From Flavobacteriales bacterium (lineage in GTDB: Bacteria > Bacteroidota > Bacteroidia > Flavobacteriales_F > PHOS-HE28): a stretch of DNA of 64,000 nucleotides. Location: positions 614,686 to 678,685 of the forward strand of contig JAXLVH010000001.1 in the NCBI GenBank assembly GCA_046329105.1. The letters run 5' to 3'. Both the position numbers and the translations under genes were made by a program. Position 1 is the stretch's first letter, and each line of letters opens with the position of its first letter. Shown piece by piece: positions 9,870 to 56,953 of this stretch. Below the pieces are notes generated by a model, which did no database searches, was not told the DNA's origin, and was given only the letters and a program-made list of their open reading frames with translations.

Positions 9870-11369
9870 ATGAAGCATACGATCGCGCTGGTCTGCTTTG
9901 TCCTGCTGTGCGGCCACGTGGCCGCGCAGCAGGTGCAGACCTTCAATGTGGTGCGGCAGAACCTGGTCCAAGGACCTGCACTGGGGCTTTCTGTGAAGGA
10001 GGTGCCGGAAGGATACCTGGTCTTTCAGGTACAACGTGGATTGTCTGGAACGCCGCAGGACCCCTTTGTCAGCCTGTTCGACCGGCAGGGCGAACTTGTC
10101 TGGGAACACGATTATGTGGTACCCCGGTACGGATTCCTCGGTTATCCCGACCCCGTTTGCCGCACGCCTGATGGCGGCTTCGCTTCGGGCGTGTCCGTGT
10201 TCGGCTGGACATCCGATATCGACAGCCTCTTTCTCTGGCGCTTCGATGCACAGGGCGATACGGTCTTCACACGTTTCCTGATGGCCGATAGCACCATGAC
10301 CATCCGCAAATGCATCCGGACGATGAACGGGGACTTCGTGTTCACCGGTCTGCATCATCCTCCTGTTGAGCAATATCTGTTGCGCACGGACAGCATGGGC
10401 AACATCAAGCACTACGCTGGCTTCGCCAACTTTGATGGATATGGAGGAATGGGGCTGGCCGAAGACCCATCAGGCAATTTCTACCTTACCGGTTTTCAGT
10501 ATAATAGTTCTCACCGTGGCAGTCTGATCAAATGCGACAGCGTGGGTAACCTGTTGTGGACGCGTTTGTACGAGATGGAGAACGGGATATCCGAATGGCT
10601 CTCGGCCCTGGTCTTGTCCGACTCGAGCGTGCTTGTTGTTGGTGGAAAAGGAATCAGCTTCGGGAACAGCTCAGCTATCATCTCGCGCTATACATCGAAT
10701 GGCGAACTCTTGTGGACCGACGATGTTGTCACGGGCATCGGGGGACCTTCCTACATCAACCGTCTCACGGATGCGTTCCAGCGACCTGACGGTACGATCG
10801 TGGTGGCCGGGCAGTATGAATGGGAGGGTATCGGTTTCTTCGGGTTTGTTCAAGGCTACAGCATGGCAGGCGATTCCCTCTGGCGGAGATCATTCACCTA
10901 TTTTACCGGAATAGGCGACGGAGATCATAACATCTGGGATGTGGAGTCCACGAGCGATGGAGGTATGATCCTTACCGGAGAGGCGTACAACCATGCTCAA
11001 CCTGGCTCGCCTGTGAACATGTGGCTGGTAAAGACCGACAGCCTGGGCTGCGTGGTACCGGGCTGCCAGAACGTGGGCGTGCAGGAGTTCACCATCGATC
11101 TGCAAGAGCACCTGGTGGTGAGCCCCAACCCCGCGAGCGATCGGGTGAACGTGCTGCTCACACTACCCGAAACCGGAGAGATCGAAGGCCAGGCACAGGT
11201 ATTGTTGTTGGATGCCACCGGCCGAACGGTGCTTGAACAGCCCATGCAACGGAACCTGAACCAACTACGCACCACCGTGGAGGTGAGCGCCTTGCCAGCA
11301 GGGATGTACTACTTGCACCTGCGCGATGCCAAGCGGTGGCTGGCGGGGAGCAAAGTTGTTGTAGAGTGA
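9870..11369 (+). CDS. T9SS type-A CTD protein with beta-propeller-like repeats (paralog 2)
   Basis: Signal MKHTIALVCFVLLCGHVAA/Q; repeats FDRQGELVW, FDAQGDTVF, KCDSVGNLLW, YTSNGELLW; CTD nearly identical to paralog 1. Confidence 0.88.
   Translation: MKHTIALVCFVLLCGHVAAQQVQTFNVVRQNLVQGPALGLSVKEVPEGYLVFQVQRGLSGTPQDPFVSLFDRQGELVWEHDYVVPRYGFLGYPDPVCRTPDGGFASGVSVFGWTSDIDSLFLWRFDAQGDTVFTRFLMADSTMTIRKCIRTMNGDFVFTGLHHPPVEQYLLRTDSMGNIKHYAGFANFDGYGGMGLAEDPSGNFYLTGFQYNSSHRGSLIKCDSVGNLLWTRLYEMENGISEWLSALVLSDSSVLVVGGKGISFGNSSAIISRYTSNGELLWTDDVVTGIGGPSYINRLTDAFQRPDGTIVVAGQYEWEGIGFFGFVQGYSMAGDSLWRRSFTYFTGIGDGDHNIWDVESTSDGGMILTGEAYNHAQPGSPVNMWLVKTDSLGCVVPGCQNVGVQEFTIDLQEHLVVSPNPASDRVNVLLTLPETGEIEGQAQVLLLDATGRTVLEQPMQRNLNQLRTTVEVSALPAGMYYLHLRDAKRWLAGSKVVVE
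11031..11369 (+). repeat. 339-bp direct repeat, copy 2 (CTD module)
   Basis: Offset 1731 bp from copy 1; starts aagaccgacagcctgggctgcgtggtaccgggc in both. Confidence 0.92.
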
Positions 11370-11386
11370 AAAAAATGCCATTCCAC

Positions 11387-11844
11387 GTCACCCTGAGCGG
11401 AGCCGAAGGGTGGTGGTGGAATAGCACTGTTGCAGATGGCCCAAGACCTGTCACGCTGAGCTTGCCGAAGCGCTACCATGATCATGTGCATGTGTGTATA
11501 GCGCTTCGGCAAGCTCAGCGTGACAGTTCAGGAAGATCCTCCAGGCAGTGTCCAAGCGATAGCGTAGCATTGCTTCAACACTCCCATGCATTGTCAGGGT
11601 GAGAACTCCCATGCACTGTCACGCTGAGCCCGCCGAAGCGCTACCAAATTCCGGTACACTGTGTTGCAGCTTGGATCGTATCGGGTTCGTGTTGCAGTGT
11701 ATAGCGCTTCGGCAGGCTCAGCGTGACAGTTCAGGAGGATCCTCAAGACAGTGTCCAGGCGATAGCGTAGCATTGATCCAACACTCCCTTGTATTGTCAG
11801 GGTGGGAACTCCCATGCATTGTCACGCTGAGCCCGCCGAAGCGC
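11387..11844. repeat. BIME-like REP array (GTCACnCTGAGC..GCCGAAG family)
   Basis: REP at 11387; perfect 28-bp inverted pair 11448-11475/11499-11526; second pair 11616-11643/11702-11729 (1 mismatch); last REP ~11820-11844; 89-nt linker repeated at 11527-11615 and 11730-11818. Confidence 0.9.
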
Positions 11845-44159: not shown

Positions 44160-44744
44160 CTACTTCTGTATAAGGCCGATCTTCCACATGCCGCGCAGAT
44201 CACCCAGTTGGTAGCCGGTCGCGCGGTCCTGGGGATACATCTCCGCAAGCACGGCGCGGGTGCCCTCCGCAATGTCTTCCGCGCCGCCGTGGCACTTCAG
44301 GCAAGTGGGCATGCCCACGGTGATCGGCTTGTAGTACCACACGGCCCCTTCGGCATCCTGTTGCACAAAGGCGGACTTGTCGCTGGCGAAGCGTTCCCAC
44401 GCGGCCCGGTCCTGCGGCAGGCGGATCCCGTTGTCCGGATCGCGGTTCCGGTCGCTGAGGCGCCGTACATCCACCTCGAACAAGGCGGCCACGGAATCCG
44501 TGAGCGGCACGGCCCGGGTGTTGCAGAAAGCCACGGCGTGCTCCGGCCCGCCGGCCTGCATGGCTGCGGACACGTTCTTCAGCAAGACCTGTTGGGCCTG
44601 TGCCGATATGGAATCGCCCAAGGCGAGGAAGTCGGCCTGCTCCGTGGCCGACAGCATGCCCGGGCCTGTATTGGTGCATGCGGCCGGGAGCAGCGCGAAC
44701 ACGCATCCGGCCACGGTCAATTTCAGGTTGCTGGGATGGTTCAT
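44160..44744 (-). CDS. DUF3365-type single-heme cytochrome c lipoprotein
   Basis: Lipobox ALLPAAC; RRLSDRNRDP.N, YYKPI..CLKCHG (CxxCH), YP.D.ATGY..GDLRG. Confidence 0.85.
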   Translation of the reverse strand: MNHPSNLKLTVAGCVFALLPAACTNTGPGMLSATEQADFLALGDSISAQAQQVLLKNVSAAMQAGGPEHAVAFCNTRAVPLTDSVAALFEVDVRRLSDRNRDPDNGIRLPQDRAAWERFASDKSAFVQQDAEGAVWYYKPITVGMPTCLKCHGGAEDIAEGTRAVLAEMYPQDRATGYQLGDLRGMWKIGLIQK

Positions 44745-44845
44745 GGTCCGTGACGAGTGGTGTTGCGTGGAATGGCCTTATAGGGCCAAGTCCAAAACTA
44801 TTCCGGGCATCCGGTACTCCATTGGAAGAAAGATCACGAAGGCAC

Positions 44846-44876
44846 TTGCATTTAACCTAATGGTTAATTACGTTTG
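44846..44876 (+). promoter_or_regulatory. arsR promoter (TTG -33, TACGTTTG -7) with operator palindrome TTAACC-N4-GGTTAA between them
   Basis: TTG 44846-44848; palindrome 44852-44867; TACGTTTG 44869-44876 is a perfect TAnnTTTG; 20-nt spacer. Confidence 0.75.
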
Positions 44877-44891: not shown

Positions 44892-45335
44892 ATGGCCGCT
44901 TCGGCGAACAAGCCCATCAGCCTCCCCTCGCCTTCGCCGGGCTACGGCGACCAACGCATGGACCGCCTCTCGCTCACCTTCTCCGCCCTGGCCGACCCCA
45001 CGCGCCGGGCCATATTGGCGCGGCTTTCCAGCGGTCCGGCCTCGGTGAACGACCTGGCCGCGCCCTTCAACATGAGCCTACCGGCGGTGAGCAAGCACCT
45101 AAAAGTGCTGGAGCGCGCGCAGCTCATTTCCCGGGGGAAGGAGGCCCAATGGCGGCCGTGCGCCATCAAGGCCGCGCCGCTGAAGGAAGCCACCGACTGG
45201 ATGGAGCAATACCGCCAGTTCTGGGAGGCCCGCTTCGATCGGCTGGATGAATACCTGAAGGAGTTGCAGGCACAGGAGAAACCGGCGCAGGCCAAGTCTG
45301 CGTCTTCAAGCAAGAAACATGGAAAACGCAAGTAA
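44892..45335 (+). CDS. ArsR/SmtB family transcriptional repressor
   Basis: FSALADPTRRAILARL, F.MSLPAVSKHLKVLE.A.LI.R..QWRPC, FWE.RFD.L; alternative start 44958. Confidence 0.93.
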   Translation: MAASANKPISLPSPSPGYGDQRMDRLSLTFSALADPTRRAILARLSSGPASVNDLAAPFNMSLPAVSKHLKVLERAQLISRGKEAQWRPCAIKAAPLKEATDWMEQYRQFWEARFDRLDEYLKELQAQEKPAQAKSASSSKKHGKRK

Positions 45336-45792
45336 GATCCAGGAAGGTGCGGTGGGCGATCGCGAGATCATTGTCACCCGCATAGTACACGCCCCGCGCG
45401 AGCGGGTGTGGAAAGCCTTTGCCACGGCCGAAGCCCTGGCCCATTGGTGGGGGCCGAACGGCTTCACCATCACCACCTCGGCGTTCGAGTTCCGCGAGGG
45501 CGGTGAGTGGGTCTTTGTGATGCACGGCCCGGACGGACGCGACTATCCGAACCGGATCCGCTTCATGCGCCTCGTGAAGCCCTCGCGCATGGAGCACGAG
45601 CACGGCGGCGATGGCGACCGCGTGGTCTTCGATGCGGTGATCACCCTCGACGACTTGGGCGACACGACCCGCGTAACGCTGCACTCCACCTTCCGCATCG
45701 CCTCAGAACGTGATCTGGTGGTGAAGGAATACGGCGCCATCGAAGGCGGCAAGCAAACCCTCGCACGCCTGGACGAATACCTCAAGCAGTAA
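45319..45792 (+). CDS. SRPBCC/AHSA1-like protein 1
   Basis: REI..TR...APRERVWKAF, WWGPNGF, FREGGEW.FVMHGPDG.DYPN, G..QTL.RL. Confidence 0.9.
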   Translation: MENASKIQEGAVGDREIIVTRIVHAPRERVWKAFATAEALAHWWGPNGFTITTSAFEFREGGEWVFVMHGPDGRDYPNRIRFMRLVKPSRMEHEHGGDGDRVVFDAVITLDDLGDTTRVTLHSTFRIASERDLVVKEYGAIEGGKQTLARLDEYLKQ

Positions 45793-45833
45793 CATCCGGA
45801 AACTTCCCTTCCCAACAAACAAAGCAAGCAATC

Positions 45834-46334
45834 ATGACAACCCCGGCCATCTTCAACTTCATCGTCAAGAAGGAGGAAAAGTCCATCACGGTGGAACGCT
45901 CCTTCAACGCACCCTTGGCAGCGGTATGGTCCGCATGGACAGAAGCCGATATCCTGTGCAAGTGGTGGGCACCGAAGCCGTACGCATGCGTGATCCAGTC
46001 GCTTGACTTCCGTGTGGGCGGAAGCTGGCGCTACTACATGCAGGGCCCGGAAGGCGATTGCCACTATTGCAGCTTCGACTACACGGCCGTGAAACCCTTG
46101 ACCTCCTTCACCGGGATCGATGGCTTCTGCGATGAGCACGGTACGCCCATCGACGCGATGCCTCGGATGAACTGGGAGAACAACTTCAACGCACAAGATG
46201 GCAGCACGGTGGTGCGCGTGCAGATCCGCTTCAACAGCGAGGATGATCTGGAGAAGATCACGGCCATGGGCTTCAAGGAAGGTTTCACGCAGGGGCTGGA
46301 CCAACTGGATGAGCTGCTCGCGATCAGGAAATAA
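45834..46334 (+). CDS. SRPBCC/AHSA1-like protein 2
   Basis: ITVERSFNAP..VWSAWT, WWAPKP, DFRVGGSW.Y.M.GPEG, MGFKEG..LDQL. Confidence 0.9.
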   Translation: MTTPAIFNFIVKKEEKSITVERSFNAPLAAVWSAWTEADILCKWWAPKPYACVIQSLDFRVGGSWRYYMQGPEGDCHYCSFDYTAVKPLTSFTGIDGFCDEHGTPIDAMPRMNWENNFNAQDGSTVVRVQIRFNSEDDLEKITAMGFKEGFTQGLDQLDELLAIRK

Positions 46335-46395
46335 GGGCGCGAGATCACGCGCTCCAAAAACTAAAAACAAGTAAGGGCGGGAAATTTCCCGCCCC
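46331..46395. repeat. Doublet of (G)TAAGGGCG..CGCCCC palindromes
   Basis: taagggcgcgagatcacgcgctcc (46332-46355) and gtaagggcgggaaatttcccgcccc (46371-46395). Confidence 0.85.
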
Positions 46396-46414
46396 GACAA
46401 ACAACCCCGACCCC

Positions 46415-46837
46415 ATGTCAACCGCAACCCGCATCACCATCTCCGCCCTTGTGAACAAACCGGTGGCCCACGTCTGGAAAGTCTGGACGGAGCCCGAACA
46501 CATCACGCAATGGAACGCCGCCAGTGACGACTGGCACTGCCCCAAGGCCAGCAACGACCTGCGCACAGGCGGCACCTTCAGCAGCACCATGGCCGCACGC
46601 GACGACAGCTTTAGCTTCGACTTCGGCGGCGTGTTCGACGATGTGCAACCGCACAAGCGCATCGCCTTCACCATGGGCGATGGCCGCTCCTGCGAGATCC
46701 TCTTCACGGAGGAGAATGGCAGTACCCGCGTAGTGGAATCCTTCGACGCCGAGGCGCAGAACCCGGTGGAGATGCAACGCAGCGGCTGGCAAGCGATCCT
46801 GGACCGGTTCAAACGGCATGCGGAGGCGCAAGCCTGA
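46415..46837 (+). CDS. SRPBCC family protein 3
   Basis: ITI.A.V..PV..VW..WT.PEHITQWN.ASDDWHCP, DLR.GG.F...M.A.D.S..FDF, GWQAIL..FK. Confidence 0.9.
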   Translation: MSTATRITISALVNKPVAHVWKVWTEPEHITQWNAASDDWHCPKASNDLRTGGTFSSTMAARDDSFSFDFGGVFDDVQPHKRIAFTMGDGRSCEILFTEENGSTRVVESFDAEAQNPVEMQRSGWQAILDRFKRHAEAQA

Positions 46838-46846
46838 AATACTGGT

Positions 46847-46933
46847 TCACCACAGAGGCACAGAGGACACGGAGAATTCGAACAGGACTTAGCGAAGGCA
46901 TCCTCCTTTGTGCTCTCTGTGCCTCTGTGGTGA
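46847..46933. repeat. CACAGAG-family inverted repeat pair
   Basis: tcaccacagaggcacagag (46847-46865) and its exact reverse complement (46915-46933). Confidence 0.9.
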
Positions 46934-46957
46934 TATCCGATACAACCTGAAGGGACC

Positions 46958-47914
46958 ATGACTTCCACAGCAACCCCGAACAAGGTGAAGGTTGCCCCCC
47001 ATGGCGACCGCGCCATCCTGATCACCCGCAGTTTCAACGCGCCGCGCGAACTGGTCTTCGATGCGTTGAGCAAACCGCCCATGGTGAAGAAGTGGCTGAA
47101 CGGGCCACCGGGCTGGTCCATGACCACCTGCATGATCGACCTCCGCGTTGGCGGCAAGTTCCGCTACGCATGGCGAAACCAGGCCGGCCATGGCATGGGC
47201 TTGAGCGGTGTGTACAAAGAGGTGGTGCGCCCGGAGCGCATCGTGAACACGGAGGTCTTCGAGCCTGCGTGGTATCCGGGCGAGGCGTTGTCGACCACGG
47301 TGCTCACCGAGAAGAAAGGCACCACCTTGATGACGATCACGGCGCGGTACGACTCGTGGAAGACCCGCGACGAGGTGCTCGCATCGCCGATGGAAGGCGG
47401 ACTGGAGTTCAGTTACCAGGAGTTGGATGCGCTCCTGGCCAAGAAGATCGCGTCAGGCTCCAAGACGTCTTCGTCCCGCACCGGCAGGAAGGCCAAGCCA
47501 GGGAACGCTTTGTTCTCCGGCGTCTCCGAGCCGGAGCTGGTGGATGCGTACATGAAGACATTGAAGCATCCGCTCAAACCCGTTGCGGAACAGTTGCGCA
47601 AGGTGATCCTGGCCGCGGACAAGTCGATCGGCGAGGGCATCTACTGGAATGCGCCGTGCTTCTACTTCACCGGAAAGATGGAGCCCTTCGACCCGAAGAC
47701 CTACAAGCGCTACATCGTCGGCTTCAACTTCTTCAAGCAGGACACGCTACGCCTCATCTTCCTGCGCGGCGCAGATGTGGAGAAGCAGGGCGGCCTGCTC
47801 ACCGGCGACTATAAGGATGGTCGTCGGCTCGCGCTCTTCAGCAGCATGGCCGACGTGAAGAAGCATGAGAAGGAACTGAAGCGGATCGTGAAGCAACTCA
47901 TCAAGACCATGTAA
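46958..47914 (+). CDS. SRPBCC-DUF1801 fusion protein
   Basis: N-terminal I.ITRSFNAPRELVFDA..EVVRPERIV.TE; C-terminal LRKVIL....IGEGIYWNAPCF..RLIF.RGA..G.Y.DGRR. Confidence 0.85.
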   Translation: MTSTATPNKVKVAPHGDRAILITRSFNAPRELVFDALSKPPMVKKWLNGPPGWSMTTCMIDLRVGGKFRYAWRNQAGHGMGLSGVYKEVVRPERIVNTEVFEPAWYPGEALSTTVLTEKKGTTLMTITARYDSWKTRDEVLASPMEGGLEFSYQELDALLAKKIASGSKTSSSRTGRKAKPGNALFSGVSEPELVDAYMKTLKHPLKPVAEQLRKVILAADKSIGEGIYWNAPCFYFTGKMEPFDPKTYKRYIVGFNFFKQDTLRLIFLRGADVEKQGGLLTGDYKDGRRLALFSSMADVKKHEKELKRIVKQLIKTM

Positions 47915-47983
47915 GGGCGCGAGATCTCGCGCCCCAAACTCAGTAAGGGCGGGTGCTTCGACTTCGCTCAGCATTCCCGCCCC
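47911..47983. repeat. Second GTAAGGGCG doublet; second unit carries a 20-nt REP insert
   Basis: gtaagggcgcgagatctcgcgcccc (47911-47935); gtaagggcggg-[tgcttcgacttcgctcagca]-ttcccgcccc (47943-47983). Confidence 0.88.
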
Positions 47984-48002
47984 GACGACAACCATCGAAC
48001 CC

Positions 48003-48464
48003 ATGATCACCACACCCGAAGTCATTACCACCCATGAGACCACAACTGCCGTGATCCCGCTTTTGATCCCCTGCCAGGACATGGGCAAATACATGGACCC
48101 CGCGATCCAGGAAGTGATCAAGGCCATCACCGGCCAGGGCATCGCCATCACTGGGCCGATGTTCTCCTTCCATAAGCGACGCCCGAGCGACAGCTTCGAC
48201 TTCGAGATCGGATTTCCGGTATCGAAGGCGATCAAGGCGGAAGGGCGGGTGATCAACGGCAAGCTGCCGGCTGTGAAAGTCGTGCGCAGCGTGTACCAAG
48301 GGCCGTACGACAACCTGGGGCAGGCTTGGGGCGCGTTGCAGAAGTGGGTGCGTGAGCAAGGCTATGGCGAAACCGGCCGCTTCTGGGAGAGCTACCTGAA
48401 CAATCCCGATGAGGTGAAGGACCCGAAGGATTACTTGACGGAGTTGAACTGGATCATCGGCTGA
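48003..48464 (+). CDS. GyrI-like small-molecule binding domain protein
   Basis: GP.FS.H, FDFEIGFPV, LPA..V.R.VYQGPYDNL..AW..L..W, WESYL..P. Confidence 0.85.
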   Translation: MITTPEVITTHETTTAVIPLLIPCQDMGKYMDPAIQEVIKAITGQGIAITGPMFSFHKRRPSDSFDFEIGFPVSKAIKAEGRVINGKLPAVKVVRSVYQGPYDNLGQAWGALQKWVREQGYGETGRFWESYLNNPDEVKDPKDYLTELNWIIG

Positions 48465-48943
48465 TGGAAACGACCGCGGACATCTCGAAGCGTACCCTGG
48501 TGCTCACCCGCAGGCTCAACGCCCCGCGCGAGCTGGTCTTTGCCGCATGGACCGATCCCAAGCATTTGGTACGCTGGTGGGGCCCGAAGGATTTCACCCT
48601 GCCGCATTGCGAACAGGACTTCCGCGTGGGCGGTGCATACCGCTTCTGCATGCGCGCACCGGATTGCAGCGACCATTGGGTGCGCGGCGAGTACACGCAC
48701 ATCGACCCGCCGCGTCGGCTGGTCTTCACTTGGCTGCGCGAGGACAACGAGGGCGACATCTGGTGCGATACCGTGGTGTGCATCACGCTGAAGGAACAAG
48801 GCGGGGCCACCTTGCTCACCTTGGAGCAGACCACCTTCGCCACCGTGGCGCATTGCGAGGAACATGCCGTCGGTTGGGGCGAATGCCTGGACCGCCTCGT
48901 GCGTTTCACTGAGCAACACGGATCATCCACATCACCGCTATGA
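48464..48943 (+). CDS. SRPBCC/AHSA1-like protein 5
   Basis: LVLTR.LNAPRELVFAAWTDP.HL.RWWGP, DFRVGG.YR.CMR.PD, GW.ECLDRL. Confidence 0.9.
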   Translation: METTADISKRTLVLTRRLNAPRELVFAAWTDPKHLVRWWGPKDFTLPHCEQDFRVGGAYRFCMRAPDCSDHWVRGEYTHIDPPRRLVFTWLREDNEGDIWCDTVVCITLKEQGGATLLTLEQTTFATVAHCEEHAVGWGECLDRLVRFTEQHGSSTSPL

Positions 48944-49365
48944 CGATCCAGGACCAGATCGATCGGTACATCGGTGACCAAACCGGGCCGAAGCAAAGCG
49001 ACCTGCGCACACTTCACCAACTCACCATGAAGGTGATGCCAAAGTGCAAGCTGTGGTTCCTCGATGGCAAGGACGCCAAGGGCAAGGTGGTGTCCAATCC
49101 GAACATCGGTTATGGCACGCAGACCATGACCTACGCCGACGGAACAACCAAGGAATTCTACCGCATCGGGTTGAGCGCCAACACCATGGGGATCAGCGTG
49201 TACATCATGGGCCTTGCAGACAAGGAACATCTCGCCAACACCTACGGCAAACGACTTGGCAAGGCCAGCATCACCGGCTACTGCATCAAGTTCAAGAACC
49301 TGAAGGACATCAACGTGGGCGTGCTGGAAGAAGCGATCCGAGACAGGGCGCAACGACCGAAATAG
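48940..49365 (+). CDS. DUF1801 (YdhG-like) protein
   Basis: IDRYI, LWFLDGK...GKVVSNPNIGYG, IGLSAN..GISVY, LGKASITGYCIKFK. Confidence 0.8.
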   Translation: MTIQDQIDRYIGDQTGPKQSDLRTLHQLTMKVMPKCKLWFLDGKDAKGKVVSNPNIGYGTQTMTYADGTTKEFYRIGLSANTMGISVYIMGLADKEHLANTYGKRLGKASITGYCIKFKNLKDINVGVLEEAIRDRAQRPK

Positions 49366-49377
49366 GTCGTGGGTGAA

Positions 49378-49396
49378 TCACCACAGAGGCACAGAG
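49378..49396. repeat. Solitary CACAGAG-family arm
   Basis: tcaccacagaggcacagag identical to 46847-46865; no partner arm seen. Confidence 0.85.
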
Positions 49397-49456
49397 AACA
49401 CAGAGGAAAAGAAACTTCAGATCCGTACCGTCGACCCGCAACACCCCCCTTCCCAA

Positions 49457-49951
49457 ATGAGCAAGCTCCAACGCACCCAAGCCTGCCTGTGGTTCCCTGG
49501 CAACGCTGAAGAGGCCGTGGCCTTCTACATGGGCATCTTCCCGAATTCCAGGATCATCAGCAAGCCGGTCGTATCCGAGGAAGTATCCACGGCGAGCGGA
49601 CTGCCCGTGGGTTCGGTGCTCTGCATCGAGTTCGAGCTGGACGGCGAGCTGTTCCTGGCGCTTAACGGCGGTCCGCAGTTCAAGTTCACCGAAGCTGTTT
49701 CGCTCATGGTGCGCTGCAAGGACCAACAGGAGATCGACCACTACTGGAAAAAGCTCAGCGCGGGCGGGCCACCCGAAGCGCAGATCTGCGGCTGGCTCAA
49801 GGACAAGTACGGATTGAGCTGGCAGGTGGTCCCCGCCATGCTTACCGACATGATGCGCGACGCCAAGGGCTATGACCGCATGATGGTGGCGCTGATGGGC
49901 ATGAAGAAGCTGGTGATCGCGGAGCTGGAGAAGGCGTTCAAAGGCAAGTAG
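49457..49951 (+). CDS. VOC/PhnB-like protein (3-demethylubiquinone-9 3-methyltransferase-like annotation)
   Basis: CLWF...AEEA..FY..IF, ALNGGP.FKF.EAVS..V.C.DQ.EID.YW, CGWLKDKYGLSWQVVP, MKKL.IA.L. Confidence 0.9.
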   Translation: MSKLQRTQACLWFPGNAEEAVAFYMGIFPNSRIISKPVVSEEVSTASGLPVGSVLCIEFELDGELFLALNGGPQFKFTEAVSLMVRCKDQQEIDHYWKKLSAGGPPEAQICGWLKDKYGLSWQVVPAMLTDMMRDAKGYDRMMVALMGMKKLVIAELEKAFKGK

Positions 49952-49977
49952 AACAGCAGGCAACCAACGCTCAACCC

Positions 49978-50424
49978 ATGAAAGCCGCAAACACAACGGA
50001 CTACCTGGCCGCGCTGCCGATCGACCAGCGCAAGGCCTTGGAAATCCTGCGCAAGCATATCCTTGCCGCAGCCCCCGGCGCGGAAGAATACTTCGGCTAC
50101 GGCCTGCCCGCCTTCAAGTACAATGGACATCCGTTGGTGTACATCGGCGCGGCCAAGAACCACTGCGCGCTGTACGGCGCGGTGCCGCCCGGGTTCAAAG
50201 AGAAGCTGAAAGGCTTTATCGTGAGCAAAGGCACGATCCAGTTCATGCCGGAAAAACCCTTGCCCGCCGGGCTGGCAAAGGAGATCGTGAAGGCGAAATG
50301 CGCGGAGATCGAGGTGCGGTGGCCGGTGAGGGAGGTGAAGAAGGTGAAGGAAGTTAAGAAGGGGAAGAATGTGAAGGTGGTGAGGATGGTGCAGAAAGCG
50401 ACGAAGAACCCGGTGAAGGAGTGA
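49978..50424 (+). CDS. DUF1801 (YdhG-like) protein with low-complexity basic tail
   Basis: DYLAALP...R.ALE.LR..I, YGLPAFKY.G.PLVY, KGTIQF...KPLP. Confidence 0.82.
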   Translation: MKAANTTDYLAALPIDQRKALEILRKHILAAAPGAEEYFGYGLPAFKYNGHPLVYIGAAKNHCALYGAVPPGFKEKLKGFIVSKGTIQFMPEKPLPAGLAKEIVKAKCAEIEVRWPVREVKKVKEVKKGKNVKVVRMVQKATKNPVKE

Positions 50425-50936
50425 TGAGGTCCGGACCGCCGATATGGAAACATGTGCGTGACGTGCTCATACTTCCCGTTACCGTTACCTGCGTGATCCC
50501 GTGGTTGATCCATGCAGGGTCGCCAGCATGGATGCCGACAGGTACCGTTGTGTCATGGTTGGCCGTGGTGCTCTTCTGTTCTGGCTTGCTGCTGTTCGCA
50601 ACCACGCTGGCAGCTTTCGTGAAGCGGGGCAACGGAACCCTGGCGCCCTGGACCCCCACACAACGACTGATCGTTTCCGGCCCCTACCGCTATTGCCGCA
50701 ACCCGATGATCACCGGGGTGCTGCTCATCCTGTGCGCCGAGGCACTTTGGCTGAGGTCAGGTTGGATCGCCGTGGAAGCCGTGATCTTCTTCGCCGTGAA
50801 CACCGTGTACTTTATCCTGGCTGAGGAACCAAGCATGGAACATAGATTCGGGCAGGACTACCGCGCGTACAAAGCAGATGTGCCGCGTTGGATCCCGCGC
50901 CTGAAGCCTTACTTCGCAAGTCCAGACATTCCATGA
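50424..50936 (+). CDS. Isoprenylcysteine carboxylmethyltransferase/PEMT-like membrane protein
   Basis: G.GTLAPW.PT..L.VSGPYRY.RNPM..G, EEP...RFG..Y..YK..VPRWIP. Confidence 0.85.
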   Translation: MRSGPPIWKHVRDVLILPVTVTCVIPWLIHAGSPAWMPTGTVVSWLAVVLFCSGLLLFATTLAAFVKRGNGTLAPWTPTQRLIVSGPYRYCRNPMITGVLLILCAEALWLRSGWIAVEAVIFFAVNTVYFILAEEPSMEHRFGQDYRAYKADVPRWIPRLKPYFASPDIP

Positions 50937-51292
50937 AAACCCAGGACTACGCCCGCGTCTTCGCCTACTCCTTCGCCTCCATCTACCCCATGTACGTGCA
51001 GAAAGTGGAGAAGAAGGGCCGCACCAAGGCTGAACTGGACCAAGTACTCTGCTGGCTCACCGGCTACGATACCAAGGGCCTGCAAAAGCAAATTGCCAGC
51101 AAGTGCGACCTGAAGACCTTCTTCGCCGCCGCGCCACGCATGCACCCGAATGCCACCCAGGTCACCGGCATGATCTGCGGGGTGTGCATCGAGGAGATCG
51201 AAAACCCGCTGATGCGCGACATCCGCCGCATGGACAAGCTGGTGGATGAACTGGCCAAGGGAAGGGCGATGGAAAAGATCCTGCGCGCTTGA
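50933..51292 (+). CDS. DUF2200 family protein
   Basis: FASIYP.YV.KVEKKGRTK.ELDQV..WLTGY, FFA.AP, ITG.ICG, R.MDKLVDELAKG; ATGA overlap. Confidence 0.9.
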   Translation: MKTQDYARVFAYSFASIYPMYVQKVEKKGRTKAELDQVLCWLTGYDTKGLQKQIASKCDLKTFFAAAPRMHPNATQVTGMICGVCIEEIENPLMRDIRRMDKLVDELAKGRAMEKILRA

Positions 51293-51301
51293 AGAAATGC
51301 A

Positions 51302-51414
51302 CACCACAGAGGCACAGAGCACACAGAGAACCGAGCAGCGCAGGACGGATCTTGCGTTGCTATATTGGTGTTGAAATCATAGTATTCCTCTGTGTGCTCT
51401 GTGCCTCTGTGGTG
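51302..51414. repeat. CACAGAG-family inverted repeat pair (27-bp arms)
   Basis: caccacagaggcacagagcacacagag (51302-51328) / ctctgtgtgctctgtgcctctgtggtg (51388-51414), perfect. Confidence 0.9.
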
Positions 51415-51426
51415 AACCGGAACTGA

Positions 51427-52011
51427 ATGAACCCCAACGACCCCTCCCAGCAACTCGTCCTTGCCTTCGAGACCGCCAAGGAATGGGACACCTGGCTGGC
51501 GAAGCACCACGCGACCTCCACGGGCGTGTACATCCGCGTGGGCAAGAAGGGCAGCGGCATCCGCTCCATCACCTGCCCCGAAGCCCTGGAAGTGGCCCTG
51601 TGCTACGGCTGGATCGATGCCATCCGGAAAAGCCATGATGCCAACACCTTTCTACAGCGCTATTGCCCGCGCGGCCCGCGCAGCATCTGGAGCGAGATCA
51701 ATAAGAAGAAGGTGCAGCAGCTCATCAAAGCCAGGCTGATGCTACCAGCGGGTCTCGCCGCCGTGAAGCGCGCAAAGGAAAATGGGCAATGGGACAAGGC
51801 TTATGCGCCGGCCAGCAGCATCACCGTGCCGCCGGACCTGGAAGCCGCGCTGAAGAAGAACAACAAGGCCCGCGACTTCTTCGCCACACTGAAAGGCAGC
51901 AACCGCTATGCATTTCTCCATCGCCTGCACACGGCCAAGAAGGCCGAAACGCGCGCGCGGAGGTTGGAGCAGTTCATCGGCATGTTGGAACGCGGCGAAA
52001 CGTTCTACTGA
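51427..52011 (+). CDS. YdeI/OmpD-associated (bacteriocin-protection-like) protein
   Basis: W..WL..HH, EALE.ALCYGWID, R...S.WS..NK, AGLAAV..AK..G.W..AY, AKKAETR.RR. Confidence 0.9.
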   Translation: MNPNDPSQQLVLAFETAKEWDTWLAKHHATSTGVYIRVGKKGSGIRSITCPEALEVALCYGWIDAIRKSHDANTFLQRYCPRGPRSIWSEINKKKVQQLIKARLMLPAGLAAVKRAKENGQWDKAYAPASSITVPPDLEAALKKNNKARDFFATLKGSNRYAFLHRLHTAKKAETRARRLEQFIGMLERGETFY

Positions 52012-52022
52012 ACAACAATGCC

Positions 52023-52457
52023 ATGAACGACCGTGAAGTACGCACCACCCGGATCATTGCCGCCCCATGCGAGCGGGTCTTTGCGGCATGGACCGATCCC
52101 GCACAGCTCGCGAGCTGGTGGGGACCGCAAGGCTTCACCAACACCTTCCACCGTTTCGAGCTGAAGCCGGAGGGTATGTGGGAGTTCACCATGCACGGCC
52201 CGAACGGCATGGACTTCCACAACACCTGCGTATTCAAGCGTATCGAACCGCCCGGCTACCTGGAGTTCGACCACTTGAAGGAAATGCACTTCTACAAGGC
52301 GATCGTGAACTTCACCGGAGTGGAAGGCGGCACGCGCGTCGATTGGATCATGCGCTTCAACACCATTGAGGAACTGGCGCCGATCCGCGGGTTCATTGAA
52401 AAGGCGAATGAAGAGAACCTCGATCGGATGGAACGGCAATTGACCAAGAAACCCTGA
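52023..52457 (+). CDS. SRPBCC/AHSA1-like protein 6
   Basis: R.I.AP.ERVF.AW.DP..LA.WWGP.GFTNTFH.F, MHGP.G.DF.N, ANEENLDR. Confidence 0.88.
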   Translation: MNDREVRTTRIIAAPCERVFAAWTDPAQLASWWGPQGFTNTFHRFELKPEGMWEFTMHGPNGMDFHNTCVFKRIEPPGYLEFDHLKEMHFYKAIVNFTGVEGGTRVDWIMRFNTIEELAPIRGFIEKANEENLDRMERQLTKKP

Positions 52458-52463
52458 AACCCC

Positions 52464-52988
52464 ATGCCTTACGTACTCCTGATCCTTGCCGTCCTCATCG
52501 TCGGCATCCTCATCGTGGCTTCCACGAAACCCAACACCGTCCACTACGAACGCAGTACAGTGATCAATGCTCCGCCGGAGAAGATCGTTCCGCACCTCGT
52601 CGATTTCCACAAATGGGAAGCCTGGAGCCCGTGGGAGAAGTTGGAGCCGGGCATGAAGCGGAGCTATTCTGGCGCGGCCAGCGGCGTGGGGGCTACCTAC
52701 GCCTGGGAAGGGAAAAAGAAGGCCGGTGCGGGCACCATGGAGATCTTGGAGACGGGCATCAGCGGCGTGAAGATCGACCTGCGCTTCATCAAGCCGTGGA
52801 AGGCTGAATGCATCGCGCAGTTCCATTTCACACCGCAGCCCAACGGCACAGACGTGCGCTGGTCGATGGACGGTCCCAACACCTTTATGGGCAAGATCTT
52901 CGGCTTGTTCATGAACATGGACAAGCTGGTGGGCAAGGATTTCGAGATCGGGCTGGCGGGGTTGAAGACGGTGGTGGAGAAGGATTGA
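52464..52988 (+). CDS. SRPBCC (polyketide cyclase/dehydrase-like) protein 7 with N-terminal membrane anchor
   Basis: Hydrophobic N-terminus; ERS..I.APPE, W..WSPW, GVGA.Y.W.G...G.G.M, G.DFE.GL..LK. Confidence 0.88.
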   Translation: MPYVLLILAVLIVGILIVASTKPNTVHYERSTVINAPPEKIVPHLVDFHKWEAWSPWEKLEPGMKRSYSGAASGVGATYAWEGKKKAGAGTMEILETGISGVKIDLRFIKPWKAECIAQFHFTPQPNGTDVRWSMDGPNTFMGKIFGLFMNMDKLVGKDFEIGLAGLKTVVEKD

Positions 52989-53012
52989 TCGGCCTCCGGT
53001 ACCTTCGCGTTC

Positions 53013-53504
53013 ATGGAAACTCACAGCGCCCAACGCACACGCAACAACGTTTCCACCCCCGCCCTTGATGAACTCCGCATCACCCGCGTGTTCAACGCGC
53101 CGCGCAAGCTTGTGTGGCAGGCATGGACCACCCCGGCCATGCTCGTGCATTGGTTCGGCTGCGCGGCCTTCAGCACCATCGATGCCGAGGCCGATGTGTG
53201 CGAGGGCGGCCAATGGCGCGTGGTGATGCGCGCCCCGGACGGCACGGACTACCCGGCTTACGGCACCTACACCGCCGTGCGCCCCATCGATCACCTGGCC
53301 TTTACGCACCAGTGGGAGAAGCAGGTGGTAGAGGTGAATCCCGCGAACCACCGCACGCAGGTGACCGTGGACCTGTACGAAGAAGGTGCGAAGACGCGCA
53401 TGGAATTCCGGCAGACGGGGCTTGCTTCAGAAGACTCCCGCGACAGCCATATCGGCGGGTGGTGCGACAGTATGGACAAGCTGGCGGAGCAGTTCGCGGA
53501 TTGA
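53013..53504 (+). CDS. SRPBCC/AHSA1-like protein 8
   Basis: ELRITRVFNAPR.LVW.AWT.P, D...GG.WR.VMRAPDG, GW....DKL; TACCTTCG box at 53000-53007. Confidence 0.9.
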   Translation: METHSAQRTRNNVSTPALDELRITRVFNAPRKLVWQAWTTPAMLVHWFGCAAFSTIDAEADVCEGGQWRVVMRAPDGTDYPAYGTYTAVRPIDHLAFTHQWEKQVVEVNPANHRTQVTVDLYEEGAKTRMEFRQTGLASEDSRDSHIGGWCDSMDKLAEQFAD

Positions 53505-53597
53505 TCCTTGCAGATCCCGCCGGTGTTTCCCTGCACCTGGAATGCAAAATGCCTGCCCGGGCGGAAGCGCGGACAGGCATTGTTGCTTTCGGTCCGT

Positions 53598-54914
53598 TCA
53601 GCTCTTCACCACGCGCTGCACGCCCACGGGCTTGCCTCCTTTCAGCAGTGAAATATGGTACACGCCGGGTTCGAGACCGCCCAAGTGGATCGTTCGGTCC
53701 ATCGGCAGGCGGCCTTGGCCTACCGTAGCGCCCAAAGCATTGACCACGCGGTATTCGGTCCCGGCCGGATCAATGTTGAGCAGGCGGACCTGGTCACTGG
53801 CCGGATTCGGAGCAACGCTGAATTGGGCCAGGGATGAAAGGTCCTGGATCGAAGTGGTGCCCAGCTGCTTCCGGTAAACATCGGTGCCACTGAACTGGGC
53901 AAAGACATAGCCGTTGAGTTCCACGAAATTGTACACAGCGAAGGTGGCGTACGGATCCTCAGGCAACCCCACGGTGTCCTTGGCGAAGGTTTGCCCGCCA
54001 TCCATGCTCAGGAACAGATCAGGGCGCGTGCCCATGTGCTGGTTCTGGCAGGACAACCAGATCGTGTTGCCACGCGTGAACATCGCCCCCACGGCGTGGG
54101 AGAAGCCCCAGATCCCCGGCTCTTGGACGAGGTAGGGCGCGGTGTTGATCGAGGTCCAGCTGGTTCCTTGGTCGGTGGAGTACTTCACGAAGCGTTCCTG
54201 GGTGGTCACATCCGTCCCGCTCAAGTACCAACGCCCGTTGGTGGGGTCGCGATCCAGCAGACCGATGGCATGCCATTGCGGAATGCCGTTGCAGTCCGGT
54301 GTCGTCCAGGTATTGCCCAGGTCGGTGGTATAAGCGAAGCCGTGCGATTCCGTTCCGCCCCCGGCGGTGAACAACGTATCGCCGTGGCTGCTGAACGCAC
54401 CCGGATCATTTGCGGCCAGCCAGGGCACGTGCGTCCAAGAAGCGTCCGTCTCGTTCTTCACGTAGTAGGCATCGGCATTGTCCGCATCCAGGGCGAGCTT
54501 TCCATTGAACCCATGGAGCTGGTTCACGCCGGCCTTGTTCGTTTGCGGCCAAAGGACGTGCGGCGGCATGCCCACCGTGTCGGAATGCCAGGCACCACCG
54601 TCATTGTCGGTCCAATAGATGTCGCCGGTGCCACCGGACATGGTGCTGGCCACATACAGCCGACTGCCCGTGCTGGTGATCAGGTGGATGTTGCCCACCA
54701 CCCCTGTGGTGGGAATGGTCGTCCAATTATCCCCATTGTCCGTGCTCTTTACCAAGCCCAGTGTGGAATTGTGCGCATACAGCGCACCTTGGTGGAGCCC
54801 GAGCGCGGTCCACGGTTCATTGTAGGCGGTGGTGAGCCCGACCGGTTCCCAAGCCTGGCCTTTGGCAACACCCAGAGCCGCCAAAAACAACAATGGAGTA
54901 ATGAACTTTTTCAT
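53598..54914 (-). CDS. T9SS CTD protein with BNR/Asp-box beta-propeller
   Basis: Signal MKKFITPLLFLAALGVAKG/Q; Asp-boxes STDNGDNW, TTDLGNTW, STDQGTSW, SMDGGQTF; CTD VAPNPASD..LEPGVYHI. Confidence 0.87.
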   Translation of the reverse strand: MKKFITPLLFLAALGVAKGQAWEPVGLTTAYNEPWTALGLHQGALYAHNSTLGLVKSTDNGDNWTTIPTTGVVGNIHLITSTGSRLYVASTMSGGTGDIYWTDNDGGAWHSDTVGMPPHVLWPQTNKAGVNQLHGFNGKLALDADNADAYYVKNETDASWTHVPWLAANDPGAFSSHGDTLFTAGGGTESHGFAYTTDLGNTWTTPDCNGIPQWHAIGLLDRDPTNGRWYLSGTDVTTQERFVKYSTDQGTSWTSINTAPYLVQEPGIWGFSHAVGAMFTRGNTIWLSCQNQHMGTRPDLFLSMDGGQTFAKDTVGLPEDPYATFAVYNFVELNGYVFAQFSGTDVYRKQLGTTSIQDLSSLAQFSVAPNPASDQVRLLNIDPAGTEYRVVNALGATVGQGRLPMDRTIHLGGLEPGVYHISLLKGGKPVGVQRVVKS

Positions 54915-55447: not shown

Positions 55448-55548
55448 TCCGCTCCGGTTCGCCGGGAAAGTAGCGGCCCGGGGACCTCTTTGCGTTTCAG
55501 GCGACATCGCCGTTGCCATGGATATGGTTGGACGATTACATTCGTTGG

Positions 55549-56373
55549 ATGCCTGCCCAGGCGAACACCTCCGAGGTGTGCTTTGTGATCCCGCCCGCAC
55601 TGCGGGATGCGGTGAAGATGTTCTGGCAGATGGACCGGACAGGGCTGATGCATGGGCATGAGACCATCGTTCCAAAGGGCGTCGTGGAGATCATCTTCAA
55701 TTTATCGGCAGAAACAATTGTGCGCTACCGGAACGGGGCCGGACCACTGACGGTGCCGCGCGTTTTCCTGAATGGCTTCAACACCGCGCCTTTCCGGATC
55801 GCGCTTCCCGCGCATCAGCGCTTCCTGGGCATCGTGCTCCATCCCACCGCCGTGAAACGGATCTTCGGATTTCCGGCCAGGGAGTGTGCCGACTGGATCA
55901 TCGACCTGTCCCTGGTGGACCGCACCATGAACACCTTGTGGCATGAGGTGATCGAGCGGCCCACATTCACGGAACGCCGGGCTTTGCTGGTGGAATGGAT
56001 GGTGGCGCGCCATGCGCAGCCCACCGCGCGCGAGTGTGCCATGGACCGCTTCCTCGGCGACCATGCCAGCCAAGTGCCCACCGTGGTCCAGTTGGCCGAT
56101 CGGCTTTGCTGGTCAACGCGCCAATTGACCCGGCGCATGGAAGAGCTGACCGCCATGAACACCGAGCGGACCCTGCACTACATGAAGCACGTGGGTGCTT
56201 TGCACTTGATCCACCTTTCCCCGATGCCGCTCACGGCGATCGCCTACGCGAGCGGTTTCGCGGACCAGGCGCATTTCAACCGCTCGTTCAAAGCCTTCAC
56301 GGGCTATACGCCCATGGCATACCGGCAAGCCATGATCCCCATGGTGGGGCACCTCATGGAGAATGTCCGATAG
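55549..56373 (+). CDS. AraC family transcriptional regulator (DUF6597-like N-terminus)
   Basis: VPKG.VE.IF, GI..HP, S.RQL.R, L..IAY.SGF.DQAHF.R.FK.FTG.TP..Y; TACATTCG at 55537-55544 favours the 55549 start. Confidence 0.9.
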   Translation: MPAQANTSEVCFVIPPALRDAVKMFWQMDRTGLMHGHETIVPKGVVEIIFNLSAETIVRYRNGAGPLTVPRVFLNGFNTAPFRIALPAHQRFLGIVLHPTAVKRIFGFPARECADWIIDLSLVDRTMNTLWHEVIERPTFTERRALLVEWMVARHAQPTARECAMDRFLGDHASQVPTVVQLADRLCWSTRQLTRRMEELTAMNTERTLHYMKHVGALHLIHLSPMPLTAIAYASGFADQAHFNRSFKAFTGYTPMAYRQAMIPMVGHLMENVR

Positions 56374-56428
56374 GTTCAATTTTCCGGTTTGGGGTCCGCA
56401 GGAGATTTGCCGCCAAACCACTGGAACC

Positions 56429-56953
56429 ATGTCCAACGCAAAAAATACGCGCTCCACGGTCGGCTACTACCTGCTGATCTTATCGATGTTCGCGTTCTTC
56501 TCCGTTGCTGGCGCCAACGTCTATGAGTTGATCACCGAGGTCCCGAACTGGTCCTCCAACGTGCCGGAGTCCCTCATTGCCAGGCGCGCGAATATCACCG
56601 TGACCAACCCTGGACACTTTTTTCAGACCTTTTCCCCGCTTGCCATCCTCTGTCTGATCGCCTCAACCATCCTGCTGCGCAACCGGCCCAAGGAGGCCAA
56701 TAAGTGGTTGCTGATCTCCCTTGGCGGAATTGTCATTGCCGAAGCCTTCACGGGCATCTACTTCATGCCGCGCAACTTCACCCTCTTCCTGGACCCCATG
56801 GATGGCGTGCCCGTGGAGGCATTGCGTGCTGCAGCCTCAGAATGGGTGGCTGCGAACAAGGTGCGCCTCGCGCTGGTGTTGATCACCTGGTTCGTGCTGT
56901 TGAAAGCGTACGCCGTTGTCGCCATTGCCCGGCACCGGGAGGTGGGGCAATAG
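56429..56953 (+). CDS. DUF1772-like four-helix membrane protein
   Basis: Hydrophobic helices; G..YE....PNW, P..FF....PL, Y..PRN..LF, W...N.VR; downstream of AraC. Confidence 0.6.
   Translation: MSNAKNTRSTVGYYLLILSMFAFFSVAGANVYELITEVPNWSSNVPESLIARRANITVTNPGHFFQTFSPLAILCLIASTILLRNRPKEANKWLLISLGGIVIAEAFTGIYFMPRNFTLFLDPMDGVPVEALRAAASEWVAANKVRLALVLITWFVLLKAYAVVAIARHREVGQ

Follow-up and report, generated by a model that had tools for sequence, protein, structure and literature searches.

The pairing of an ArsR-type regulator (COG0640) that lacks metal motifs with an Aha1-type protein (COG3832) has been described as a mobile two-gene module, for which antibiotic resistance was judged the likeliest role and a toxin–antitoxin (TA) function possible (Makarova, Wolf & Koonin 2009, PMC2701414); no function has been assigned to the pair since 2009. 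A metal-insensitive autorepressor of M. tuberculosis, Rv2034, is known to bind an 8-N4-8 palindrome (Gao et al. 2012, PMC3338718), and ArsR goes unmentioned in a review of the bacterial START proteins published in 2026 (PMC13525633). Here we describe an array of 16 genes from a Flavobacteriales bacterium (contig JAXLVH010000001.1 of assembly GCA_046329105.1), found in a 64,000-nucleotide (nt) stretch of DNA referred to below as the window, and consider its possible role in chemical defence. The head of the array is the known ArsR–COG3832 module, and the long, single-regulator array is a greatly expanded form of it. The two have in common an ArsR without metal motifs, an overlapping AHSA1 gene as the next gene, and a distribution over many phyla. 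Expansion of the described module, however, means that one genome holds several two-gene copies apart from one another, and their distribution is patchy, whereas here a single ArsR is followed by 15 cargo genes, among them GyrI-like, DUF1801, PhnB, YdeI, DUF2200 and PEMT genes. In the literature searched, no description was found of long ArsR-led arrays, of their operator or of the backbone-plus-indel layout reported below.

The array extends from 44958 to 53504 on the + strand, and its 16 genes (g1 to g16, in order) are all co-directional. Analysis of the open reading frames of the window with Pfam reproduced both the 16-gene co-directional run and all the domain names given in a preliminary description of this DNA. 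There are eight SRPBCC domains, seven of the AHSA1 family (g2, g3, g4, the N-terminal half of g5, g7, g14 and g16) and one of the Polyketide_cyc2 family (g15), together with three DUF1801 domains (the C-terminal half of g5, g8 and g10). The overlapping stop and start codons reported earlier are present at five gene pairs: g1/g2 (17 nt), g6/g7 (1 nt), g7/g8 (4 nt), g10/g11 (1 nt) and g11/g12 (4 nt). The start of arsR, previously set at 44892, was moved to the conserved ATG at 44958 (MDRLS...); in one conspecific contig a 35-nt indel, which is not a multiple of three, lies between these two ATGs. Orthologue lengths point to 49457, 50933 and 52023 as the likeliest starts of g9, g12 and g14, respectively. 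The clustering of the genes is not due to chance, since six of six conspecific contigs have the same array and eight sister genomes have related ones. All 16 genes are common to the six conspecific contigs retrieved, and an identical copy of the g5 protein is found in the metagenome-assembled genome (MAG) GCA_019694775.1 and in many metagenome contigs.

The regulator, g1 (44958–45335, +), is a winged-helix protein of the ArsR/SmtB family (Pfam HTH_20/HTH_5; NCBIfam HTH_metalloreg) and belongs to a subfamily devoid of metal motifs. Its single cysteine lies within the invariant motif EAQWRPC, and it has no ELCVCDL-type, α3 CXC or α5 His/Asp/Glu metal motif. It is 73–94% identical to its counterparts in sister MAGs (labelled ‘Flavobacteriales bacterium’), and its relatives in the PDB are 3f6o and 7r22. 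As claimed in the preliminary description, one regulator leads the array: arsR is preceded by a conserved promoter and a candidate operator. The aligned upstream regions of eight Flavobacteriales loci reveal a candidate arsR promoter of the Bacteroidota type (44846–44876, +), with a -33 TTG at 44846–44848 and a -7 box, TACGTTTG, at 44869–44876; we take these boxes to match the promoter consensus of Bacteroidota. The candidate operator is a perfect palindrome, TTAACC-N4-GGTTAA (TTAACCTAATGGTTAA, 44852–44867), which separates the -33 box from the -7 box. All eight loci share the TTG, followed by ATTTAACC-N4-GGTTAAnT and then TAC(G/A)TTTG, while the flanks further upstream are unrelated. A Bacteroidota-type promoter with a palindrome between its boxes is new at an ArsR–COG3832 locus.

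The candidate operator recurs well outside this clade. In 40 of 80 loci with a homologous arsR, drawn from many phyla, the half-site arrangement AACC-N4-GGTT precedes that gene by no more than 150 nt (0/80 in control regions), and at some loci it is doubled, with a 16-nt spacing; the longer form TAACC-N4-GGTTA has a single occurrence in the whole 64 kb. The three-gene operon Rv2034-Rv2035-Rv2036 is similar in its metal-insensitive ArsR, its overlapping genes, an SRPBCC gene in second place and a palindrome with a 4-nt spacer, although the operator there is CCGTAAGT-N4-ACTTACGG and Rv2034 also activates distant genes, phoP and dosR. Because Rv2034 is a metal-insensitive autorepressor that binds an 8-N4-8 palindrome, and because of where the site is placed here, autorepression by ArsR through TTAACC-N4-GGTTAA can be put forward, by analogy, as a strong inference. 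Judged from its sequence, the whole array almost certainly forms one unit, governed by a single promoter that ArsR controls.

Related arrays were labelled with Pfam in eight sister genomes (L087–L092, L214 and L215). Seven of these were clustered with the window into orthologue groups, giving the eight arrays to which the fractions below refer; L088, which looks fragmented, was omitted from the clustering. The arrays range in size from seven genes (L091) to 21 (L092). The expansion called striking in the preliminary description is large relative to the known pair, but an array of 16 genes is not unusual within this clade. A backbone present in seven or eight of the arrays keeps a constant order: ArsR, g3-type AHSA1, GyrI-like, g7-type AHSA1, g10-type DUF1801, g14-type AHSA1 and Polyketide_cyc2. 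A second set of genes, found in four to six arrays, comprises the g2, g4, g8, g9 and g13 types, the AHSA1–DUF1801 fusion, DoxX_2 and PF08713 DNA_alkylation, the last two being absent from the window; the g12 type is present in three of the eight. Restricted to one or two arrays are rifampin Arr, Ble-like_N, Glyoxalase_4, alpha/beta hydrolase, DUF1428, DUF4287, SnoaL, KilA-N and the PEMT gene of the window.

Content thus varies between sister genomes, and the fixed content that would speak against an accreted array was not found. The variation does not take the predicted form of a conserved head and a variable tail, however: the backbone is collinear over the full length of the arrays, including the last two or three genes, and the turnover is interstitial. 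The closest sister, L214, has the gene order of the window with one difference: its DUF1801 and DUF2200 genes are direct neighbours, with no g11 between them. The gene g11, whose codons overlap those of its neighbours on both sides, is therefore most simply explained as a gain in the lineage of the window. The overlap between arsR and the first AHSA1 gene (17–20 nt) is found in seven of the eight arrays. In L087, L090 and L215 this first gene is a g3-type paralogue, approximately 44% identical to g2. The middle of the L215 array also contains a protein in which AHSA1 and GyrI-like domains are fused and a KilA-N gene (5483–6466 and 7733–8566). Several of the related MAGs bear isolate names that resemble those of Danish wastewater plants, which suggests wastewater treatment plants as the habitat of the hosts.

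One genome per species was scanned with an ArsR alignment. There were more than 600 matches to [KR]EAQWRPC, and the best 80 were examined. These 80 proteins are 62–84% identical to g1 and come from Cyanobacteria, Acidobacteriota, Proteobacteria, Chloroflexota, Verrucomicrobiota and other phyla; conservation across such distances reflects either very strong constraint or frequent transfer. An AHSA1 gene directly follows ArsR in 64 of the 66 scorable loci of diverse phyla, but these head AHSA1 proteins are only 31–52% identical, and their best match in the window varies between g7, g2 and g5. The run of genes behind ArsR has a median length of one and a maximum of eight across the 80 diverse loci, as a lower bound, the genes having been classified by the families of the window and one Pfam census. 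Large arrays are a speciality of this Flavobacteriales clade. Other genes behind ArsR in that census include DUF899 (4), RibD_C (4) and GFA (2), as well as arylamine N-acetyltransferase (NAT), beta-lactamase fold, YceI, DoxX, GST_N and MFS genes. On pSymB of S. meliloti (L093), an ArsR 76% identical to g1 lies beside dctA/B/D in a unit composed of ArsR, SRPBCC and GFA.

The preliminary description envisaged an extensible library, put together by accretion. The SRPBCC paralogues of the window are only 22–44% identical to one another, while the collinear orthologues of each are 54–84% identical. From these sequences the paralogues are ancient rather than a recent extension, and each has been maintained on its own; distinct specificities would fit this pattern but are not proved by it. 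Comparison with three sisters gives dN/dS values of 0.07–0.10 for ArsR and 0.09–0.39 for the cargo, although dS is close to saturation; these values point to purifying selection and to functional genes. Within the species, five contigs (L001–L005) match the window at 99.6–99.9% identity over a stretch that begins at 44913 and reaches at least 57914. On the upstream side of 44913 they bear no relation to it and carry a diverged promoter allele, five unknown genes on the + strand and ThiF; ThiF and the five genes replace the Tll0287-like gene and the M1 peptidase of the window. The abrupt start of identity at 44913, next to unrelated upstream sequence, indicates a strain-level recombination breakpoint in the arsR leader. 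Single-nucleotide polymorphisms among the conspecific contigs are grouped into short tracts, which lie in g6/g7 for L004 and in g9 for L003 (window 48227–48572 and 49750–49861) and look like imports by recombination.

Five of the 15 junctions have spacers of 80–134 nt that hold hairpin repeats (z -4.3 to -10.8). Long REPIN-like hairpins, each containing inverted copies of the 18-mer CACCACAGAGGCACAGAG, occupy the g4|g5 spacer (two copies; 46844–46934; fold -52.7 kcal/mol, z -6.0) and the g12|g13 spacer (51299–51418; fold -77.2 kcal/mol, z -10.8), and repeat comparison places a single copy of this repetitive extragenic palindromic (REP) element in the g8|g9 spacer (49378–49408). Twin small hairpins, rich in GC, are found in the g3|g4 spacer (46335–46400; fold -30.8 kcal/mol, z -4.6), with a second copy in the g5|g6 spacer (47915–47985; fold -37.5 kcal/mol). 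These two spacers are homologous: a perfect palindrome of the GGGCGCGAGATCTCGCGCCC type immediately follows the stop codon and is itself followed by a GGGCGGG...CCCGCCC hairpin. The twin hairpins are confined to conspecific contigs; read on the - strand, they have a terminator-like appearance.

One alternative to a single operon is that these spacers split the array into five or six units (g1–g3, g4, g5, g6–g8, g9–g12 and g13–g16), with ArsR controlling g1–g3 only. The stability of the hairpins is what recommends it. However, no U tract follows the hairpins on the + strand, no spacer contains an intrinsic-terminator-like site on that strand, and the TAnnTTTG promoter box is absent from the + strand inside the array, the arsR box being one of three in the window. 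A sigma-70 promoter scan gave no matches, as expected for Bacteroidota, and the sole matches of the array in Rfam, miRNA-like and below threshold, were to the long hairpins. Several sister arrays, moreover, are without hairpins, and the spacers of L087, L089 and L092 measure 47 nt or less almost throughout. The hairpins are therefore best seen as secondary insertions into an ancestrally packed operon, and a division into separate units, though deserving of attention, seems unlikely. Beyond g16, a hairpin at 53540–53590 lies between the end of the array and the convergent gene (fold of 53505–53597 -38.6 kcal/mol, with a weak z of -2.1), and its position makes it the likely end of transcription.

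If the array is one operon, the proposed mechanism would be as follows. A metal-independent ArsR would bind TTAACC-N4-GGTTAA and repress itself and the 15 downstream genes as one autoregulated operon, and a non-metal signal would relieve the repression. Most of the cargo would constitute a battery of small cytosolic binders of hydrophobic ligands (eight SRPBCC, one GyrI-like, one PhnB/VOC and three DUF1801), accompanied by a membrane methyltransferase and by DUF2200 and YdeI/OmdA proteins, which are uncharacterised in fold or function. The likeliest role would be tolerance of toxic organic compounds, namely antibiotics, genotoxins and other xenobiotics, the members acting by binding, by self-sacrificial or hydrolytic inactivation, or by chemical modification. 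Repression by ArsR, co-transcription through the hairpin spacers and inducibility are no more than inferred here, and so are all ligands and any protection that the proteins would give.

The functional clues, which come mostly from the company that the genes keep, together favour a role in detoxification or tolerance. A gene inside the L087 array (11353–11748) scores 224.5 bits against the NCBIfam rifampin_ARR equivalog (cut-off 130), and L088 also carries a rifampin Arr gene. In four sisters a PF08713 DNA_alkylation (AlkD-type) gene stands directly after the GyrI-like gene; Ble-like_N genes are present in two sisters, and Glyoxalase_4 and alpha/beta hydrolase genes are also within sister arrays. 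By association with these families, chemical defence under ArsR control would be the best available explanation, and we consider it somewhat more probable than not. The resistance and repair families of the sister arrays support the chemical-defence theme of the preliminary description, but not its picture of a pure sponge made up entirely of binder folds: g11 is a predicted membrane methyltransferase, DUF2200 is all-alpha and the sister arrays hold enzymes. Since the arrays mix binders with enzymes, ‘library of binders’ is too narrow a term.

Several observations weigh against the chemical-defence reading or the single operon on which it is built. The window is without the Arr, AlkD-like and Ble-like genes of its sisters, none of its proteins closely resembles a resistance protein that has been characterised by experiment, and NCBIfam names none of the cargo of the window. 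PADLOC likewise gave no cargo match, only generic winged-helix-turn-helix matches to ArsR. The hairpins of -52.7 and -77.2 kcal/mol in two of the spacers could stop or process the transcript, and the -7 motif has so few copies in the window (three) that finding none inside the array carries little weight. Finally, three premature stops occur in conspecific contigs, W122* in g9 and Q36* in g14 of L003 and Y79* in g13 of L005 (window sites including 51663 and 52128); they suggest that the members are individually dispensable, or are assembly errors or chimeras of metagenome contigs.

A more ambitious form of the chemical-defence reading can be formulated, in which a pan-bacterial, non-metal ArsR sensor (EAQWRPC) would drive an evolvable ‘chemical immunity’ operon whose diverged SRPBCC, GyrI-like, DUF1801 and VOC binders would each neutralise another class of toxin by sequestration or self-sacrifice, beside inactivating and repair enzymes. 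We put this forward tentatively, as an idea with a real but minor chance of being correct; if true, it would amount to a regulated multi-binder defence, distinct from efflux and from single-enzyme resistance.

The array might instead handle endogenous or nutritional hydrophobic metabolites, such as quinones, lipids and flavonoid-like or aromatic breakdown products, or reactive by-products, as a general stress battery whose ArsR senses the physiological state. SRPBCC/START proteins bind mostly lipids and other hydrophobic metabolites (PMC13525633), Rv2034 is tied to lipid and hypoxia regulation, and the DoxX, PhnB/VOC, GFA, DUF899, RibD_C and GST partners belong to general redox and detoxification families. 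The high identity of ArsR across phyla, too, suggests a universal signal. The Arr, AlkD-type and Ble-like genes of the sister arrays are nevertheless hard to fit with endogenous metabolism, and the turnover of content between close relatives is as expected of an environment-facing role. We regard this explanation, like the division into several transcription units, as improbable, albeit one that merits serious consideration.

A further possibility concerns the head AHSA1 protein, which could be the ligand sensor of ArsR in a split one-component system: it would bind the inducer and contact ArsR, the two forming a regulatory pair to which the remaining genes are the payload, in place of 15 binders of equal standing. 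This would account for an ArsR without metal sites, and it agrees with the conserved overlap of arsR with the AHSA1 gene in seven of eight arrays, with the adjacency of the two in 64 of 66 diverse loci and with the ArsR–AHA1 fusion proteins recorded in Pfam (PMC2577659). The head AHSA1, however, is no fixed partner. The head gene is swapped for the g3 type in L087, L090 and L215, whose ArsR is approximately 90% identical, and across phyla the head AHSA1 proteins are far less conserved than ArsR and vary in their best match. The proposal is a little harder to sustain than the metabolite and multi-unit alternatives.

Two other explanations are very improbable. Were the array an integron-like cassette array with the hairpins as recombination sites, one could point to two families of hairpin repeats that within the 64 kb are confined to it, to the REP doublet that immediately precedes the OmdA gene in the window and in L090 alike, despite a different position of OmdA in the two arrays, and to GyrI-like/Cass2 proteins as known integron cargo (Pfam description); yet an integrase and attC-like sites were looked for and no integrase is adjacent, the hairpins are at five of 15 junctions and missing from most sister arrays, and the backbone is collinear with vertical orthologues. 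The repeat itself, of which there are five copies in the 64 kb, all within three array spacers, and three copies inside the L090 array, turns up as well in over 120 unrelated metagenome contigs, none with an array-family gene, and is thus a generic repeat; its use as a general marker of ArsR arrays was rejected for the same reason. An expanded TA-like module, with a COG3832 toxin and an ArsR antitoxin as TA databases list them, is just as implausible and was rejected: the ArsR–COG3832 pair was predicted to be TA-like from its patchy, multi-copy distribution and is among the M. tuberculosis TA candidates, but here one regulator serves 15 unpaired cargo genes of ligand-binding and enzyme families, and the COG3832 protein of S. 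maltophilia is non-toxic in E. coli and in its own host (PMC7650669). A type II polyketide cyclase/aromatase cluster was also considered and rejected, as the flanks contain no polyketide synthase genes (KS/CLF/ACP).

The cargo genes, all on the + strand, are described here in order. The head AHSA1 gene g2 (45319–45792; Pfam 82.7 bits) has orthologues in four of the eight arrays, g3 (45834–46334; AHSA1, 61.2 bits) in seven, and g4 (46415–46837; AHSA1, 81.8 bits) belongs to an orthologue group found in six; in the three arrays that were compared by BLASTP its orthologues are 73–84% identical. The fusion protein g5 (46958–47914) has AHSA1 at residues 27–160 and DUF1801 at residues 208–314, and this type of fusion is kept in L087, L089 and L214. 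The GyrI-like protein g6 (48003–48464; 53.2 bits), a predicted small-molecule binder, is found in all eight arrays; its nearest solved relatives are CTR107 (5kax, E 7e-21) and the effector domain of the multidrug sensor EcmrR. Equally universal among the arrays is g7 (48464–48943; AHSA1, 113.5 bits), which is overlapped by g8 (48940–49365), a weak DUF1801 match (28.0 bits, cut-off 27.2) with orthologues in four arrays.

The PhnB-like protein g9, of the VOC superfamily (49457–49951; PF06983, 144 bits), matches 1u69, an uncharacterised PA2721-like structure (E 4e-29). It is followed by the DUF1801 protein g10 (49978–50424; 46.8 bits), with orthologues in seven arrays, and by g11 (50424–50936), a predicted integral-membrane methyltransferase of PEMT/ICMT-like type (PEMT 49.2 bits; ICMT below threshold, as is the score against the NCBIfam isoprenylcysteine methyltransferase cut-off), which among the arrays compared is confined to the species of the window. 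The small all-alpha DUF2200 protein g12 (50933–51292; 170.6 bits) is 65–92% identical to homologues of other phyla; its AlphaFold2 model has a pLDDT of 93, and the sole structural match is the uncharacterised SP1917 (3c9p). The YdeI/OmdA-family protein g13 (51427–52011) combines DUF8412, taken from precomputed Pfam, with OmdA (81.7 bits) and has no sequence relative in the PDB.

Three SRPBCC genes complete the array. These are g14 (52023–52457; AHSA1 74.2 bits, Polyketide_cyc2 40.1 bits), with orthologues in seven arrays; g15 (52464–52988; Polyketide_cyc2, 49.8 bits), which begins MPYVLLILAVLIVGILIVAS, has an N-terminal hydrophobic helix and is found in all eight; and the terminal g16 (53013–53504; AHSA1, 97.1 bits), whose orthologues in five arrays are the last gene in each. 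The AHSA1 and DUF1801 domains are fused in g5, encoded by overlapping genes in g7/g8, and adjacent in five sisters, where the g10 type stands immediately upstream of the g14-type AHSA1; this fusion, overlap and repeated adjacency suggest that the two folds work together.

On its upstream side the array is flanked by an M1 peptidase and three genes on the - strand, one of which is a divergent Tll0287-like gene (44160–44744, -). A separate TAnnTTTG box serves the latter on the - strand (44793–44800), approximately 50 nt upstream of its start, and the 150-nt gap therefore carries two back-to-back promoters. Downstream lie a convergent BNR/sortilin-like gene and then an AraC regulator, and there is no integrase among the genes flanking the array. 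The convergent gene (53598–54914, -), which is kept at the array end in L214, encodes a 438-residue protein with a C-terminal tail that reads like a type IX secretion sorting domain, although Pfam reported no Por_Secre_tail. The AraC regulator contains DUF6597 and is near the end of the array both in the window (55513–56373, +) and in L090 (19289–20378); it is followed in the window by a weak anthrone-oxygenase-like gene (56363–56953, +) and has a Glyoxalase gene as its neighbour in L090. This AraC/DUF6597 protein may be a second, linked regulator.

Proteins of the SRPBCC/AHSA1, DUF1801, PhnB-like, DUF2200 and YdeI types are among the commonest uncharacterised small proteins of environmental bacteria. 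The arrays offer a testable handle on them, with one conserved operator, one regulator, and a natural series of arrays where Arr, AlkD-like and Ble-like genes share slots with uncharacterised ones. If the cargo does protect against antibiotics or pollutants, it would represent an overlooked part of the intrinsic resistome and provide functions for several DUF families.

The core of the array is already in the literature, as discussed above, and nothing in it is mechanistically unprecedented; its parts can be compared with several characterised binders. CalC, CalU16 and CalU19, which confer enediyne resistance by self-sacrifice, share the AHSA1-like SRPBCC fold, and g7 shows sequence similarity to CalU16 (4fpw, E 1.5e-9), but anonymous structural-genomics AHSA1 structures in the PDB score higher and there is no enediyne biosynthetic cluster near the array. 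Among the GyrI-like binders and hydrolases (CTR107/SAV2435, EcmrR and the YtkR7-type cyclopropanoid hydrolases), CTR107 and the EcmrR domain are those that g6 resembles in sequence. The adjacency of GyrI-like and PF08713 genes in the four sisters, which the window lacks, presumably corresponds to the pairing of functions in yatakemycin self-resistance, where the partner is a glycosylase of the AlkD/YtkR2 type. In concept the array comes close to TipAL/TipAS and AlbA, in which a regulator controls a drug-binding protein that sequesters the inducer; there a MerR-type regulator is combined with one binder, whereas here an ArsR leads 15 heterogeneous genes.

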